Shown here: piece after piece, positions 1,626 to 56,388 of the stretch
Numbering within the stretch: the stretch's first letter is position 1
How the letters are laid out: each line of letters begins with the position of its first letter
From: Octopus vulgaris
Taxonomy: Eukaryota
NCBI GenBank assembly: GCA_951406725.2
Contig: OX597815.1
Location: forward strand, 89,466,001 to 89,530,000
Length of the DNA stretch: 64,000 bases
Reading direction: 5' to 3'
The notes under the pieces: model-generated
The model's database searches: none
Seen by the model: only the letters and a program-made list of their open reading frames with translations
What the model was told of the DNA's origin: nothing
Made by a program: the position numbers and the translations under genes

Positions 1626-1654
1626 ATAAGGGTGGAAAGGAACACACGAGTTGA

Positions 1655-1886
1655 TATATATGAAAAAACAAGTCAAAAATAGAAAATGCTAAGATGATTT
1701 TATAGTGAATCTTTCAGTACCGGTTTCGGTCATTTTGAGACCTTTTCAACTGTAACGATAAAATAATTAAATTTAGAAAAATTGGAAAAAAAGTTTTTTT
1801 AAAAGAATATTTCTGTAGTAGTGTTCAGATATAAGTAGCATTCTGCCTTTCTCTGACTCCCTTGTTTGCACTTGTGTGTTCGAGGT
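1655..1886 (-). mobile_element. Hammerhead repeat family B, left arm of inverted pair
   Basis: Near-identical reverse complement of 5476-5693. Third copy at 61005-61230. Abuts TA repeat. Confidence 0.75.
1715..1752 (-). ncRNA. Minimal type I hammerhead, U3-A8 core variant (family B)
   Basis: CAG-TTGAAAA-GGTC-tcaaaat-GACC-GAAAC-CG-GTA-CTG; palindromic ACCGGT stem III. Confidence 0.65.
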
Positions 1887-1964
1887 CGTACTCGAAACGT
1901 TACTGAAACATCTAATTAGCTTTGAGAATAACGAGAATATATATATATATAATATATATATACT

Positions 1965-2404
1965 ATAGAAGTGGAACCGCAAAGGATGGAACCAAACAGC
2001 GCACACGGGTGTGTATGTTCTACCTGAGAGGTTCCTGCTGGCACGGAAAGGAAGGTGCAGGCTGCCGCTTTGCACATCGGGGACCCTGCCACAGAGACAC
2101 GAGGCAGATGGACAAACCATCAACACAAAGAAAAGGGATGGACTACGCACCACCTGCCCCAAAGCGGAGGTACGCAGATGTTGTGCGCGCCACAAACAGC
2201 CAACATGATGTTGTCGAAAGAGCAGCTGCTGAGCAACAATCTTTTTTGTGCATGGCACAAAAGATTGTACAGCAGCTGACCTGGCTTCATCAAACCCAAG
2301 CCCGCAGGTGGGACTACCCACTATATACCAGACCACCACAGCAAACAGACACAGGATGGACACCGCCGGCAACAACGTACACCTCACCTCGATACTCCTA
2401 CTGA
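1965..2404 (+). pseudogene. LINE ORF1 C-terminal fragment with CCCH zinc finger
   Basis: CMFYLRGSCWHGKEGAGCRFAH (C-x7-C-x8-C-x3-H) at 2012-2077. Ends at TGA 2404, overlapping the ORF2 start. Confidence 0.7.
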
Positions 2405-5350
2405 ACATCAGAGGACTGCAAACACTCAGTAACAGGACAAAGATCCCGTTCCTGAGAGACTTTGTTGCATGCAATCAAGCCTTATGCATAGCACTTACAG
2501 AAACGCACCTGAAACCGGACATAGCAGATGCGGAGTTACACATACCACAGTATGCTGTACTACGGACCGACAGGAAAGAAAGGAGTCATGGAGGTGTTGC
2601 TATGTACATCCGTGAGGACCTCACACCCCAGGTCCTCTTGTCATACTCAAACTCGGTGTGTGACACACTAATTGTACATATTAGGCAACTTGATGTAGTT
2701 GTGTGTGCTACATATCGCCCTCCAGATGTCCCAAGCCATGTGGACAAGTTCGAAGACTGCCTTATAAAAATAGAAGAAATTCTAACCACATTAGAACAAC
2801 ACATAGGTGTGCTTTTTATGGGAGACTTCAATCTGCCCAATGTCAGATGGCCCGAGGGCCTTTCTCTCCCAGGAATGACAAGATGTGAACGAGGACAGGC
2901 GAGGTCCCTCCTGAACCTCATCAACACCCTCATGGAGCAGGTAATACTCCAACCAACCAGGGCAGGTAACACACTGGATCTCTGCTTCACAAATGACATG
3001 GATCTCATCCATAATGTGAAAGTGACACCGACACTACTCTCGGATCACAACATGATAGAGCTGACCATGTACGGGCCAAAAGAGAGCACGGACATGCAGC
3101 CTACAAGAAACCCTCAAAATCTTTCCAGCTTGAACTACCATAAGGCAAACTGGAAACAAATTGAGAAAGAGATCCTCAAACAAAACTGGCCTGAATGTCT
3201 CTCCTCGCCAGACATCGACGTGAAACTTCAACAATTCATGTCTGTAATGCAAGCCATATGCTAGAAATGTGTCCCAGAGAGAAAGGCCACTGTACACAAG
3301 AACAAAATCCCCAGAGAGAGGAAAATTTTAATGAGACGGCGTACGAAATTTTCAAATCGCCTAAACAAACAGATTGAAAGCAGTGAAAAGTCCCGCCTAA
3401 AAATAAAACTGTTGGAAATCGAAAAATGTCTGCAACTCTCCCATGAAAAAGAAAGAGCAGACAAAGAAGCCTGGGCTATAGAAAACATAAAATCTAACCC
3501 CAGAGCTTTCTACAGGTATGCCAAAGAAACAGCTACAGTGCACTGTAGAATAGGGCCACTCCTCGAAAAGGATGGCACACTTACAGGAAAACCAATGAGG
3601 GTAAGTGAAATACTGAATGAGCAATTCAAGAGTGTTTTCACTCCACCCCTTGGGCATCTCCAAATCACCAATCCAACTGACTTTTTTACCACTGCAGATA
3701 TAAAATCAGAGGCGGCGACGATAGATTACATCGATATAAAGGAAGACGATGTAACCAAGGCTATAGATGAAATGAAAACAGACTCAGCTACGGGCCCCGA
3801 TGGATTCCCGGCAATCCTCCTAAAAGCATGTAAGAGAGTCCTAGCAAGACCACTGCAGTTCCTCTTTCAGAGCTTCCTTGCAGCTGGCAAACTTCCAGGA
3901 AAACTGAAGGAAGGTAAAATATGCCCCATTCATAAAGGAGGTAGCAGAGCGGAAGCCAAGAACTATAGACCTATCTCTCTGACCTCACACATCAGCAAGG
4001 TCATGGAACGAATAGTCAGAAGGAAGCTGATCACCTTCCTTGAAGAGAATGACTTGCTGCCCGACACCCAACATGGTTTCCGACCAGGGAGAAGCTGTTT
4101 AACTCAGCTCCTACAACACTATGACTGGGTGCTGAAACGGCTGCTCAACCACTCAAATGTGGAAGTGATATATCTCGACTTTGCAAAGGCCTTTGATAAA
4201 GTCGATCATGGAATGATATGTCACAAACTGCGTGATCTCAACATAGTTGGAAAACTGGGAGAATGGCTTCATGACTTTCTGAAGGATAGAAGTCAGGTGG
4301 TAGTAGCCAATGGGGCCACCTCCATTAACACACAAATAGTGAGCGGTGTTCCGCAGGGCACTGTTCTGGGACCACTACTGTTCATAATGGCCCTCTCAGA
4401 CATGCACTCAGCCACGCAGAGAGCCACGATCACAAGTTATGCAGATGATCACAAAAGTCTCACAGGCAATACAGAACCCTGAGGACACTAAACACCTGCA
4501 ATGTGAGCTGGACGAAATATACAAGTGGGCTGAAAAGAATAGCATGCAGTTCAATGCTGGAAAGTTTCAAGCTTTATACTATCAGCATGCAAAACTGAAT
4601 GCAATACCCAATGAATACACTGGACCCGGAGGGATTGCAATCCCAGAGGCACAATCAGTGCGTGACCTGGGTATTCACATGAGTGATGACGCGACCTTTC
4701 ATGTACATGTTGCTAAACTGACAATGAAATGTAGACGGCTGGCTGGCTGGATTCTTAGAACCTTTAGAACAAGAGAACAAGAAACCATGATGGTCCTCTG
4801 GAAGACACTTGTCCTAAGCCACTTTGACTATTGCTCTCAGCTATGGTCACCATCCAGTGTCAAGTTGATCACAGAACTTGAGGCGATCCAACGAAGCTAC
4901 ACAAAGAAGATAGCCTCTATGCAGAATGTAAGCTACTGGGAAAGACTCAAGAGATTAAAATTATATTCCCGGGAGCGTAGGCGGGAAAGATATGCCATAA
5001 TATACATCTGGAAGATCCTGGAGGGAAGTGTCCTGAACTTTGGCATCGAGAGTTATGCAAATGCCAGAACTGGGCGCCACTGCGTGGTGCCTAGGACTCC
5101 AAACCTGCCATCAAGATGTAGGACAAGATACTGTGATAGCCTGGGCTTCCGAGGCCCACAGCTCTTCAATATCCTCCCGAAGAACCTGAGAGACCTGCAT
5201 GGGGTGGATACAGATGTCTTTAAAATGAAGCTGGATCTCTTCCTGTCAGGTGTCCCAGATGAACCAACTTCACGGCAGGAGGGGCAGATGAGGGCAGCTG
5301 CATCGAACTCTCTCATGCACCAAATAGCAGCTGCTAGAAAGCCTCCATGA
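2356..5350 (+). pseudogene. LINE ORF2 (AP endonuclease + reverse transcriptase) with one stop and one frameshift
   Basis: APE motifs NIRGL, LTETHL, GGV, YRPP, MGDFN, LDLCF, SDHN. RT motifs GPDG, NYRPISL, QHGFR, YLDFAKAFDKV, GVPQGTVLGP, YADD. In-frame TAG at 3262-3264 and +1 shift near 4449. Confidence 0.92.
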
Positions 5351-5475
5351 AGTGAAACCAAGTAGCAACACAAAATGGCGGTGCCCCAGCATGGCCACAG
5401 CTCATAAGCTGAAACTAGAATCAATCAATCAATCAATCATATACTTAATTATACTTAATTATATCAAAGGGAAAT

Positions 5476-5693
5476 GTGCAAACAAGGGAGTCAGAGAAAG
5501 GCAGAATGCTACTTATATCTGAACACTACTACAGAAATATTCTTTTAAAAAAACTGTTCTTCCAATTTTTCTAAATTTAATTATTTTATCGTTACAGTTG
5601 AAAAGGTCTCAAAATGACCGAAACCGGTACTGAAAGATTCACTATAAAATCATCTTAGCATTTTCTACTTTTGACTTGTTTTTTCATATATAT
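5476..5693 (+). mobile_element. Hammerhead repeat family B, right arm (HHR at 5595-5632)
   Basis: CAGTTGAAAAGGTCTCAAAATGACCGAAACCGGTACTG; 3' end runs into (TA)n. Confidence 0.75.
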
Positions 5694-22269: not shown

Positions 22270-22590
22270 ATTGATATGGCTGTCCCAATCGACATAAATG
22301 TATCAAGACCTACCAAAAACTGAGCAGGTATAAAGATCTTGAAATAGAAATTGGCAAAATGTGAAACTTCAAGACTAAAACAATACCTGTTGTCATGGAA
22401 GCCCTAGGAATGATATCAAAAGGGGCTGATACCTACCTAGCTCAGACACAGGTAAAGCCTAAAATGGCCGAAATTCAAAAGATAGTGCTCATGGAAACTG
22501 CCCATATCCTACGTAAAATACTGTCTGTGTAATCACACATTTTAAAACAAATTCATAATAATTTTCTTATGTTTTCTTAAACATTCTCTA
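22270..22590 (+). pseudogene. RLE-type LINE C-terminal endonuclease fragment
   Basis: IDMAVPIDIN..KLSRYKDLEIEI..KTIPVVMEALG..EIQKIVLMETAHILRKILSV*. Confidence 0.75.
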
Positions 22591-22861: not shown

Positions 22862-23653
22862 TATCCGTAATAATGAAGGGTGAAATTAATTAATTTGGAA
22901 TAATTATCAATTACACCAAGTAGTCTTCGGCATGTAAAAGACTCATTCGAGGAAAATTTAAGTAATACTAAGCAATAAAGGGTTTAGCAACGAATTGCCT
23001 TACCACAGACCGAATTTAGAAATAGCAGTCAAAGAGTTATAGCTATTTCTTCTACTAAAAAGGGAGATCTCAGTAAAAAACACAGCAATTGGAAGGCAGA
23101 CACAAACAGGTAAGAGAGAATGAATTGACGGCAATCTATCATACAATTTTAAGTTATCTACGGACGCACGTTTCGAAATCAAGTTTTTAGGAAAGCATAA
23201 GAATTAAATATTAAATAATTCTACGTTACCCAGACTTCTTTTCTCTTCAGCGTAGAATACTATAATCATAAATGATTATATATTGAATTTTGAGATACTA
23301 GAAGGCACCAACTCAACTCAGTATCAGAGCGAGCTAGAATCCGCAACTAGTATCACCAAACTCAAAGTGTGAATGAAAGGATTGTGTCACCAGCCCCTTC
23401 CCACCCGCGTGTAGCCAAAACAAGATGCTATGGTCATCTACTGAGATAAAATATGGTTATCCGTAATAATGAAGGGTGAAATTAATTAATTTGGAATAAT
23501 TATCAATTACACCAAGTAGTCTTCGGCATGTAAAAGCCTCATTCGAGGAAAATTTAAGTAATACTAAGCAATAAAGGGTTTAGCAACGAATTGCCTTACC
23601 ACAGACCGAATTTAGAAATAGCAGTCAAAGAGTTATAGCTATTTCTTCTACTA
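22862..23653 (-). mobile_element. Retrozyme-like element family F, about 1.33 monomers (596-bp unit) between (TA)n tracts
   Basis: 22862-23057 is repeated at 23458-23653 (one mismatch seen). Contains an HHR; no ORF. Confidence 0.8.
23158..23255 (-). ncRNA. Type I hammerhead ribozyme (family F)
   Basis: CTACG-CTGAAGA-GAAA..(long loop)..TTTC-GAAAC-GTGC-GTC-CGTAG. Confidence 0.8.
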
Positions 23654-53207: not shown

Positions 53208-53563
53208 AGCCCTAGCTCTATCCCTCTCTATCTATTTATCTACTTATCTATTTGTCTGTCTGTCTATCAATCTACCTGTCAATGTATGTTTGCGCATATA
53301 TATATTTCTGCCCGTCTGACCGACAGTGTGGTTCTATATCTATAAATTTCATTTTCTAACTCTAGTACACCGCCCCCCCCACACAGATACACACACACAC
53401 AAGTGCACATATATGTACACACACACGGATACGCACACAAACACGTGCACATATATGTACTCACATACACATATGTATCTTTATACATGTGCACATGTAT
53501 ATATATATATATATATACATATACGCATACATATATATATACATATACACACACACATATATA

Positions 53564-53617
<54 letters not shown>

Positions 53618-53837
53618 AAAATACATACATATATATATACGCATCCATACATAGATGTATATATATATACACATACATATATATATACATATACATATAT
53701 ATATATATGTACATATACATACATATACATATATATACATATGCATACATATATATATATACATATATATATATACATACATACACATACATACATATAT
53801 ATATATATACACACATACATACATACATATATATACA

Positions 53838-53925
<88 letters not shown>
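53127..53925. repeat. Long compound (CT)/(TA)/(CA)/(CATA) low-complexity tract
   Basis: Read directly; source of several spurious ORFs. Confidence 0.9.
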
Positions 53926-53930
<5 letters not shown>

Positions 53931-54996
53931 TATAGGGTGAAATTAATTAATTTGGAATAATCATTAATTTCACCAAGTAGATTTCGGCATGTAAAAGCCT
54001 CATTCGAGGAAAGTTTAAGTAATACTAAGTAATTAAGGGTTTAGCAACGATTTGCCTCACCACACACCGAATTTAGAAATAGCAGTCAAAGAGTTATAGC
54101 TATTCTTTCTACTAAAAGGGAGATCTCAGTAAAACCACAGCACTTGAAAGGCAAACACAGACAGGCAAGAGAGAAAGAAATGACGGCAATCTAAAACTTA
54201 ATTTCGAAACGTACGTCCGTAGGTGACTTAAAATTGTATGATAGATTGCCGTCATTTCTTTCTCTCTTGCCTGTCTGTGTTTGCCTTTCAAGTGCTGTGG
54301 TTTTACTGAGATCTCCCTTTTAGTAGAAAGAATAGCTATAACTCTTTGACTGCTATTTCTAAATTCGGTGTGTGGTGAGGCAAATCGTTGCTAAACCCTT
54401 AATTACTTAGTATTACTTAAACTTTCCTCGAATGAGGCTTTTACATGCCGAAATCTACTTGGTGAAATTAATGATTATTCCAAATTAATTAATTTCACCC
54501 TATATTATTACTGATAACCGTATTTCATCCCAGTAAATGACCACAACATCTTGTCTTGGCTGCACGCTGGTGGGAGGGGGTTGGTGACACAAACTTTCAT
54601 TCACACTTTGAATTTGGTGATACTGGTAACGGCTTTAGCTCGCTCTGATACTGAGTTGAGATGATGCCTTCTAGTACCTCGAAATTTAATATACAATTAT
54701 TCATAATTGTAGTGTCCTACGCTGATGAGAAAAGAAGTTGGGTAAGACATAATTATCTAATTCTTATGTTTTCCTAAAACTTAATTTCGAAACGTACGTC
54801 CGTAGGTGACTTAAAATTGTATGATAGATTGCCGTCATTTCTTTCTCTCTTGCCTGTCTGTGTTTGCCTTTCAAGTGCTGTGGTTTTACTGAGATCTCCC
54901 TTTTAGTAGAAAGAATAGCTATAACTCTTTGACTGCTATTTCTAAATTCGGTGTGTGGTGAGGCAAATCGTTGCTAAACCCTTAATTACTTAGTAT
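53926..54996 (+). mobile_element. Retrozyme-like family F, about 1.4 monomers (583-bp unit) plus a 268-bp inverted 5' arm
   Basis: 54191-54413 equals 54774-54996. 53926-54193 is the reverse complement of 54242-54509. Both ends lie in (TA)n. Confidence 0.82.
54716..54806 (+). ncRNA. Canonical type I hammerhead ribozyme (family F)
   Basis: CCTACG-CTGATGA-GAAA..TTTC-GAAAC-GTAC-GTC-CGTAGG; predicted cleavage after C54800. Confidence 0.87.
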
Positions 54997-55001
54997 ATAT
55001 A

Positions 55002-55073
<72 letters not shown>

Positions 55074-56112
55074 GTATCATTCTTAAACAAAACTATTCAC
55101 ACTGCTTTCGAAATATCGGCCAGTTAACCCACTGTAGGTTTGCAATGCATTGAAGTTAATCTGTAGTCTCTGTTGTGATGATATTTTCAACGGGTATACG
55201 AGTTTGAGCGGTTTGGTAATTAGTTGAGTTGTGATAGAGAGTTGTAATCATAACCCCAAATTATAGTGTAACCCTTCAGATTAATGTAAACTTCTCTTTA
55301 TCAAAAGTAAACATAGAAGCTAACGATACTACACACGTGAATACATATTTACCCTCAAATATAAAACTATGTTTTCTTCTTTTAACCATTATTCCTTCTG
55401 CGTATGAGTTTTCTTCATTACGGTACGAAAAATGCCATTATCCTAGCATAATATCTACAAATGCATGGGGGTATGTGATGGACGACAATAACTTCTTATG
55501 ACATTGTGTAAAAGACTTTTCAAGCGTGAATATGGATCTTATCCACTGATACAAAAAAATGATTGTATAAACATACAAAACATACACTCACTCAGACGCA
55601 CAAACAAACATAGACACAAAGACGCGAGCACGCACAATCATACTCACTTTCATAGAAAGGCCTTTATAGCGACAATTGTTTTAAAACAGTGTATTTTAGA
55701 CGTCATGTTTTAAATTATGTTTTCAGTGTTCCCTATCCAAAACAATGCAGTGGAAAAGAAAAACAAAAGCAAAACAAACAAGCACTCACACATTCACGTT
55801 CTACATACATATGCATATACAAACTAGCTATTAGATGCACTTATTAATAATTTCCACAGAATATCTTAAAATTAGTCGGTTAACTGAATATACGTATTTC
55901 CTCAAGATTGTTCCAGTACTTGAAGAAGCTTTACGAAATAGTTTTTTGAAATTATTTTTTAGTAATGTGTCGATGAAAGTGAGCATATTTGAAAGCACCA
56001 GCAATGCAGTTTTAAGTAACAAATAATTTATTCATTATCTTTTTTAAAGTTTCAAGCACGAATGTACTTTTATAAATGAAAATGTAAGAGAGACAGGAAA
56101 AACAAAGTGTGT

Positions 56113-56154
<42 letters not shown>

Positions 56155-56159
56155 TTTAT

Positions 56160-56382
56160 AATTAGGGTTCAGCAAAGATTTGCTTCACCACATACCGAAG
56201 TTTAGAAATAGCAGTCAAAAAATCTTAGCTATTCCTTCTTCTTTAAAAGGGGCTCCCAGGAAAACCAAAGTACTTGAAAACAATCCACGCAGGCAACCTT
56301 ACCATGAAATGGTCTTTTTCATGCCGAATTCTACTTGGTGAAATTACTGATTACTTCTTAATTAATTAATTTTACCCTTTGT

Positions 56383-56388
<6 letters not shown>
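56160..56388. mobile_element. Diverged family F fragment with internal inversion
   Basis: 56160-56297 is in one orientation (TTTAGAAATAGCAGTCAAA) and ~56315-56388 in the other (CATGCCGAA..CTACTTGGTGAAATT..TTACCC). (TA)n on both sides. Confidence 0.7.

Follow-up and report, generated by a model that had tools for sequence, protein, structure and literature searches.

A 583-nt hammerhead-bearing repeat of Octopus vulgaris with two fixed 3' ends, very probably a non-LTR retrozyme dependent on Penelope-like elements

General structure of the insertion

Examination of positions 53926-54996 of the window, as we call the whole 64,000-nt stretch of Octopus vulgaris DNA that was analysed, revealed an inverted arm and a forward arm of one repeat unit, joined head to head and set between (TA)n tracts. 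The left flank (53498-53925) is a (TA)n-rich microsatellite that forms the target site, and the right flank (54997-55077) is a (TA)n microsatellite. The forward arm (54191-54996, plus strand) is 806 nt long and amounts to 1.38 copies of a 583-nt unit (U361-583, then U1-583, where U1-583 is 54414-54996), hence an exact 223-nt direct repeat with a period of 583, whose first copy occupies 54191-54413 and whose second occupies 54774-54996, both on the plus strand. This repeat had been reported in a first-pass annotation made from the letters of the DNA and was borne out, as was the absence of an open reading frame: round the circular unit, no stretch free of stops exceeds 48 aa on the plus strand or 69 aa on the minus strand. 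The span then given, 53926-54996, does contain the forward repeat; it also contains an inverted arm of 268 nt (53926-54193, minus strand) that had gone unmentioned. The inverted arm is 100% identical to the unit, overlaps the forward arm by 3 nt (CTA) and has its outer (3') end at a site termed E2 (U96); the 3' end of the forward arm is at a second site, E1. One whole hammerhead motif and one half are present, the first copy of the direct repeat holding the 3' half only, with its cut site at 54217, and longer arrays elsewhere carry one motif per unit. On the plus strand, a hairpin at 54461-54502 is followed by an internal copy of E2 (U92-111; feature 54461-54524), and a small hairpin at 54962-54975 is followed by E1 (U569-6; feature 54962-54996). 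The former hairpin is present in single folds of three families and missing from the RNAalifold consensus, and covariation in the E1-E2 region is weak (double-sided changes in 4 of 17 predicted pairs, covariation term -0.24).

Two related insertions lie in the same window. The copy at 22862-23653 (minus strand) has one arm between (TA)n flanks, with its 3' end at E2 (22862), a hammerhead core at 23250 and a cut site at 23163. It had been taken for the same unit at 596 bp; the period holds (195 of 196 positions match), but the copy is on the minus strand and belongs to a sister subfamily, B, about 88% identical to the focal unit (subfamily A). A short reading frame at 22400-22531 that ends just before this copy bears what we take to be a resemblance to the C-terminus of a restriction-like-endonuclease LINE. 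The insertion at 56151-56387 is short and two-armed, belongs to a related family, E (82-88% identical), and has one arm ending at E1 and the other at E2.

The unit is dispersed and present in high copy number in the genome searched (2.8 Gb, 227 contigs). A local retrotransposon protein has its named relatives in Octopus sinensis and Argonauta hians, as would suit an octopus host. First-look candidates number 2,532 for the 583-nt unit and 1,834 for subfamily B; 40 were scored in each case, and neither figure is a copy count. Five related non-coding families, B to F, are 62-88% identical over shared parts and have periods near 545-596 where measured. Among the mapped insertions there are monomer, dimer and multimer copies in continuous tandem arrays, with no paired LTRs.

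The hammerhead motif and its conservation

A type I hammerhead with a predicted cut after C54800 was recognised at 54716-54806 (plus strand). It comprises a stem I of 6 bp (54716-54721 with 54801-54806, CCTACG/CGTAGG), a core made of CTGATGA (CUGAUGA in RNA, 54722-54728) and GAAA (54789-54792), a stem II region of 60 nt, and a palindromic stem III (ACGUACGU), the palindrome ACGTACGT at 54792-54799 lying just before the predicted cut site. A strict hammerhead descriptor found two motifs in the 64-kb window, this one and the minus-strand motif of the sister copy (23250), and none in 100 dinucleotide shuffles. A search of Rfam gave nothing at the gathering score and no hammerhead family at E<=5, probably because of the long stem II. 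The earlier label of canonical hammerhead therefore suits the core, stem I, the palindrome and the cut site, and does not suit stem II or the Rfam result.

The monomer RNA predicted between the two cut sites (54218-54800, plus strand, 583 nt) should be strongly folded, with a predicted energy of -158.6 kcal/mol for the linear form (z -5.2; 0 of 100 shuffles as good) and of -153.9 kcal/mol for the circular form, as against -120.3 +/- 5.8 kcal/mol for shuffles. Less favourably, the active hammerhead fold is predicted to be 3.3 kcal/mol less stable than the minimum-energy one. A possible GT-AG intron of 70 nt, picked out by eye at 54806-54875 following the hammerhead, had no matching joint in contigs of presumed-RNA runs.

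Stem I reads CCTACG/CGTAGG, TCTACG/CGTAGA, ATTATG/CATAAT, GTTACG/CGTAAC or CCCATG/CATGGG across the families, family D being compared through one copy only, and TGAG/CTCA (4 of 6 pairs) in most copies of family F. All six families keep the stem, 5 of its 6 pairs having changed on both sides, stem III is palindromic throughout, and of 969 core and stem I positions in A copies 2 differ. To judge from these compensatory changes, the hammerhead appears to be maintained across the six families. The core of family C (L177-L196) is mostly TTGATAA, a swap at U3-A8 that we presume to be compensatory. The same TTGATAA core was seen in a hammerhead-like motif of a Neptune-type element (L063:5376-5512).

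Two fixed 3' ends, one for each arm

The ends of the insertions were mapped in four samples. An end-blind sample was obtained with a query (U460-577) located upstream of both E1 and E2, and consisted of 36 distinct insertions behind 40 matches. The end windows, E1 (U569-6) and E2 (U92-111), are about 100 nt apart and cover 7% of the unit; they were set after the first sample had been looked at. In the end-blind sample, 53 of 57 3' ends fall in these windows. The corresponding counts are 58 of 61 for 39 full-unit A copies, whose insertions partly overlap the end-blind sample, and 54 of 63 for 36 subfamily B insertions and 49 of 51 for 29 insertions of family F, a 545-nt relative, the query having contained E2 and thus favouring it in these last two samples. 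The 5' ends are scattered over the entire unit, as in ordinary variable truncation. Two-armed insertions combine E1 with E2 rather than the same site twice, at ratios of 16:1 (end-blind A), 19:0 (full-unit A), 18:2 (B) and 20:0 (F), while 4, 3, 7 and 2 further two-armed insertions of these samples have an end outside both windows. The focal insertion and the short one at 56151-56387 both obey this pairing. In the end-blind sample a TA flank adjoins 55 of 57 ends, 15 of 36 insertions are one-armed and 14 of 57 arms are longer than one unit; where two arms occur, they are joined head to head, usually over a few overlapping bases.

These counts bear directly on where reverse transcription starts. 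The first-pass annotation had seen variable permutation in the copies and proposed that synthesis begins at arbitrary points of a circular template. The scatter of 5' ends and the arms of more than one unit would suit such a process, but the confinement of nearly all 3' ends to 7% of the unit and the pairing of E1 with E2 refute variable permutation of the start points, and we give arbitrary starts almost no credence. It had also stated that its two copies, at 53926-54996 and 22862-23653, start and end at different points, which is right for the 5' ends and wrong for the 3' ends: the difference between the two comes from the use of E1 in one and of E2 in the other. Since the 3' ends are fixed and the 5' truncation is ordinary, the permutation argument for a circle fails. 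As the pattern that would count against its reading it had named fixed termini inside an ORF-coding element; the termini are indeed fixed, but no linked ORF occurs at the family loci sampled. Its broader claim of a non-coding, head-to-tail hammerhead unit moved through RNA is supported, arms longer than one unit running past the cut site.

We also considered an ordinary minisatellite or a foldback DNA element, propagating with no RNA step and carrying the hammerhead incidentally. Its inverted arms would be likened to terminal inverted repeats, and DNA-level duplication does act on the arrays (see below); such an origin nevertheless sits badly with strand-polar fixed 3' ends, variable 5' truncation, the many insertions with one arm only, compensatory changes in the hammerhead and a motif that no shuffle reproduced, and we hold it to be very improbable.

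The insertions instead display the features of Penelope-type insertions, namely partial tandems, 5' truncation, an inverted arm, a tail at one end and a microsatellite target. Published Penelope-like insertions are described as partial tandems whose inverted arm is truncated at the 5' end and whose tail, of 30-40 bp, is often one-ended (PMC8557442). The E1/E2 end pattern is this Penelope "tail" signature, although the tail measures about 100 nt in the unit and 118 nt in local Hydra families, against the published 30-40 bp. The present data contribute three points: each arm was measured to use one start site, the tail is three times as long as published, and autonomous Hydra-type elements follow the same rule. 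In family D (L197-L216) the E1 site itself holds a (TA)n tract, like the target, which hints at annealing between primer and template at the start site.

Penelope-like elements of the genome and the search for a partner

Intact Neptune-type ORFs of 781 aa, with RVT_1 and GIY-YIG domains, are present in the genome. Hydra-type Penelope ORFs measure 842-1091 aa and contain, as read by eye, the RW[RK], DKT, CxCX5C, CxxC and CxH motifs given as diagnostic of the Hydra clade in PMC8557442; Pfam recognised no family in the two that were tested. This clade is very large, with 16,572 first-look candidates. Intact Hydra-type ORFs with asparagine-rich inserts occur at L157:900-4172, L158, L162, L164, L166 and L247, and elements of this type are longer than the under-3-kb elements described. 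Local Hydra-type elements with ORFs of 976-1091 aa carry hammerheads with a long stem II and a palindromic stem III, and have two ends about 118 nt apart. All nine of their two-armed copies with both ends readable pair one end of each kind, and in three more one end was called.

A partner was sought with the GIY-YIG family and with two Hydra-type and one Neptune-type protein as queries, and the loci found were compared with the unit. The search took in about 196 Penelope-protein loci, partly overlapping, and thereby a small fraction of the Hydra-type candidates, which exceed 16,000. None of these loci yielded an autonomous element whose 3' end is homologous to the unit's, the matches at L114, L116, L234 and L238 having been read in part. 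Matches to the unit at L038, L057, L169 and L175 were rejected as partners, being separate TA-flanked insertions, and L217 proved to be the same place as L027. The unit's end region resembles the sampled Hydra or Neptune 3' ends at shuffle level only (best 114 of 500), and the resemblance that the E2 region seemed to bear to Hydra ends was discarded as not significant on the same 114 of 500 shuffles. The RT and GIY-YIG ORF of an autonomous Hydra or Neptune element is absent from the unit, and no ORF is linked to it at the family loci sampled, where tblastn with Penelope proteins matched unlinked neighbours only.

The copies might be pseudo-LTRs, derived as 3' pieces from a Penelope element with an ORF, the insertion layout being that of autonomous Penelope elements and the partner search having taken in a small part of the Hydra-type clade. 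The arms, however, run continuously round the unit, up to 3.0 times for the 583-nt unit, 5.3 times for the 596-nt unit of B and 9.8 times for the 545-nt unit of F, with no ORF, and the tblastn result is equally at odds with this origin, which we judge improbable. We retain a non-autonomous unit as the likely reading. As no shared 3' sequence was found among the loci compared, its tie to Hydra is one of architecture only, and by analogy with the local Hydra-type elements that clade is probably its mobiliser.

The RNA template

If a cut linear monomer were copied, arms started at E1 would be expected to stop 196 nt upstream, and those started at E2 299 nt upstream. Stops within 4 nt of the cut site were found in 2 of 44, 1 of 64, 1 of 107 and 1 of 113 encounters in the four samples; so few of them indicate that the cut linear monomer is not the template, which leaves a ligated circle or an uncut multimer.

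Copies within one insertion diverge by 0.99% (A) and 0.36% (B), less than the between-insertion means of 2.6% and 0.93%, and private variants common to all copies of an insertion number 24, of which 13 extend across both arms. These figures favour the circle, as do arms of up to 5.3 units in B and 9.8 in F. Against it, divergence within an insertion is roughly matched by that from the closest other insertion (0.95% in A, 0.35% in B). By analogy with the retrozymes of mussel, coral and axolotl, which form RNA circles (PMC7229834), the template may have been a ligated RNA circle, and we put this at about an even chance.

The same element and the same two-site priming could also have operated on linear transcripts that read through tandem arrays and stay uncut, with the number of units restored by DNA tandem duplication and the hammerhead acting elsewhere or sometimes. 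We regard this as a real possibility, although not the reading that we adopt. The rarity of stops at the cut site fits it equally well, and unprocessed RNA is reported as the dominant substrate of the Poseidon element of Anolis (PMC11167929). Three insertions (L023, L105 and L332) carry a private variant that is common to both arms and absent from some units, which one monomer circle does not predict. Long arrays point the same way through arm-specific higher-order periodic variants: in L420, L421, L424, L412 and L413, very young 545-nt arrays of family F with 6-10 units, such variants recur every 2, 3 or 4 units and are best explained by DNA-level duplication after insertion. These variants weaken the case, considered at first, that arms 8-10 units long prove rolling. 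A linear template nevertheless leaves unexplained why an intact hammerhead is conserved in six non-coding families. Other points against it are that discordant sites in insertions with at least four copies are mostly singletons (50 vs 6), that 13 private variants are present in all of at least three copies, and that the related retrozymes just cited make circles.

RNA editing was examined as proof of a circle and rejected. A first sample had A>G in 10 of 25 shared private variants vs 14 of 192 singletons; a larger one had 11 A>G and 12 T>C among 42, with no strand bias. The excess persists in subfamily B only, where 6 of 7 cross-arm private variants are A>G, and is absent from A and F. In the B loci concerned (L329, L331, L333, L334 and L443), the cross-arm A>G changes fall on positions predicted to be paired; three have a UAG context, two lie within hammerhead stem I, and A-to-I editing is a possible cause.

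Contigs of six runs of guessed RNA or unknown kind and of two large unlabelled runs cover the unit. The head-to-tail joint occurs in the contigs of three runs; tandem genomic copies would be expected to give the same joint, and contigs reveal neither ends, nor strand, nor circles.

Discussion

Together, these observations lead us to classify the 583-nt unit as a non-autonomous non-LTR retrozyme, a parasite of Penelope-like elements, with a probability of about 0.9. Judged by its genomic sequence, the unit has the characters of a non-LTR retrozyme. With metazoan representatives of this class (PMC7229834; bioRxiv 10.64898/2026.07.22.740005), as far as these are described there, it shares tandem units that are non-coding and carry a single type I hammerhead, a GC content below 50%, a highly self-paired monomer, monomer, dimer and multimer copies, and co-occurrence with Penelope-like elements, from which such elements have been argued to derive (bioRxiv 10.64898/2026.07.22.740005). 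It had been thought longer than metazoan retrozyme monomers, which does not hold, since 583 nt falls within the published range of consensus lengths, 51-972 bp (bioRxiv 10.64898/2026.07.22.740005); units of 545-596 nt do exceed the circles of about 170-400 nt shown by experiment (PMC7229834). The sections of these papers at hand describe neither two fixed 3' ends nor inverted second arms nor (TA)n targeting, and the 60-nt stem II region is a further difference. Homology to the pLTR of an autonomous Penelope-like element, a character of the class, was not found among the roughly 196 loci compared here, which sample such elements in part.

The element itself thus likely belongs to a known kind, the animal retrozymes. 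No account of this family came up in our literature search, outside which lie Repbase/Dfam and the supplementary files of the retrozyme papers, where the unit may be present. The words ribozyme, retrozyme and hammerhead are absent from the main text, as available to us, of an octopus repeat annotation (PMC13282606), whose repeat library may likewise hold it.

Closer parallels are found among Penelope-like elements. The Hydra clade, as presented in PMC8557442, shares with the unit (TA)n targets, a hammerhead, partial tandems with an inverted 5'-truncated arm and a tail at one end, and its supplement records a (TA)n preference for Hydra-1_Obim. Hydra-type elements of the present genome share in addition the long stem II and the rule of one end each, but they code for proteins, whereas the unit is non-coding and its DNA is not significantly similar to the Hydra 3' ends sampled. 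For Poseidon PAc of Anolis carolinensis, the protein is reported to cut and extend both target strands, the tail being the stretch between two internal starts (PMC11167929). Internal starts of reverse transcription at two sites downstream of a hammerhead, AT-rich targets and genomic ends that coincide with start sites are common to that element and ours (PMC11167929). PAc differs, according to the same account, in being autonomous, in having start sites 30-40 nt apart in an AC-rich stem-loop, compared with about 100 nt here, and in using the same start sites on both strands in vitro, compared with one site per arm here.

The return of retrozyme RNA into DNA has been proposed and not demonstrated in the available text of the retrozyme papers (PMC7229834; bioRxiv 10.64898/2026.07.22.740005). 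For the present unit, tandem copies would be transcribed through, adjacent hammerheads would associate via their palindromic stem III and cleave at 54800, and ligation of the monomer would follow. A Penelope protein with RT and GIY-YIG domains would then nick both strands of a (TA)n tract. Priming would take place at E1 for one nicked strand and at E2, about 100 nt away, for its partner, a mechanism suggested by the genomic pattern. Each arm would end at a variable point, mostly past the cut site as seen in the insertions, before the two are joined head to head. Taken as a whole, this path of mobilisation into (TA)n by a Penelope-like (probably Hydra) element from a hammerhead-cut and re-ligated RNA circle seems to us as apt to be right as wrong. 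That an RT dimer with two active sites engages one nicked strand each, at E1 and E2 of the same circular RNA, is a more tentative idea that we rather doubt.

Published results on cleavage bear on the early steps. A short palindromic helix III is held to imply that cutting depends on a dimer (PMC4209133). Two findings tell against these steps: 8 of 9 retrozyme dimers tested are reported to have failed to cut (bioRxiv 10.64898/2026.07.22.740005), and the hammerhead of a Poseidon element is described as not needed in vitro (PMC11167929).

Young, abundant families such as these record the integration step in their ends, and the start-site rule common to the unit and to Hydra-type elements points to a candidate enzyme and to exact priming sites. 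If the idea of an RT dimer acting on one circular RNA is true, the Penelope tail and the inverted arm would be products of one coordinated double-priming event, and the RNA circle would serve directly as template for rolling integration targeted to TA tracts.

Finally, positions 1654-5693 of the window contain a LINE-type coding region, with an AP endonuclease at 2233-3261 and an RVT_1 domain at 3265-4479. It is flanked by 218-nt inverted repeats (1654-1871 and 5476-5693) that are 99% complementary, an arrangement unusual for a LINE.
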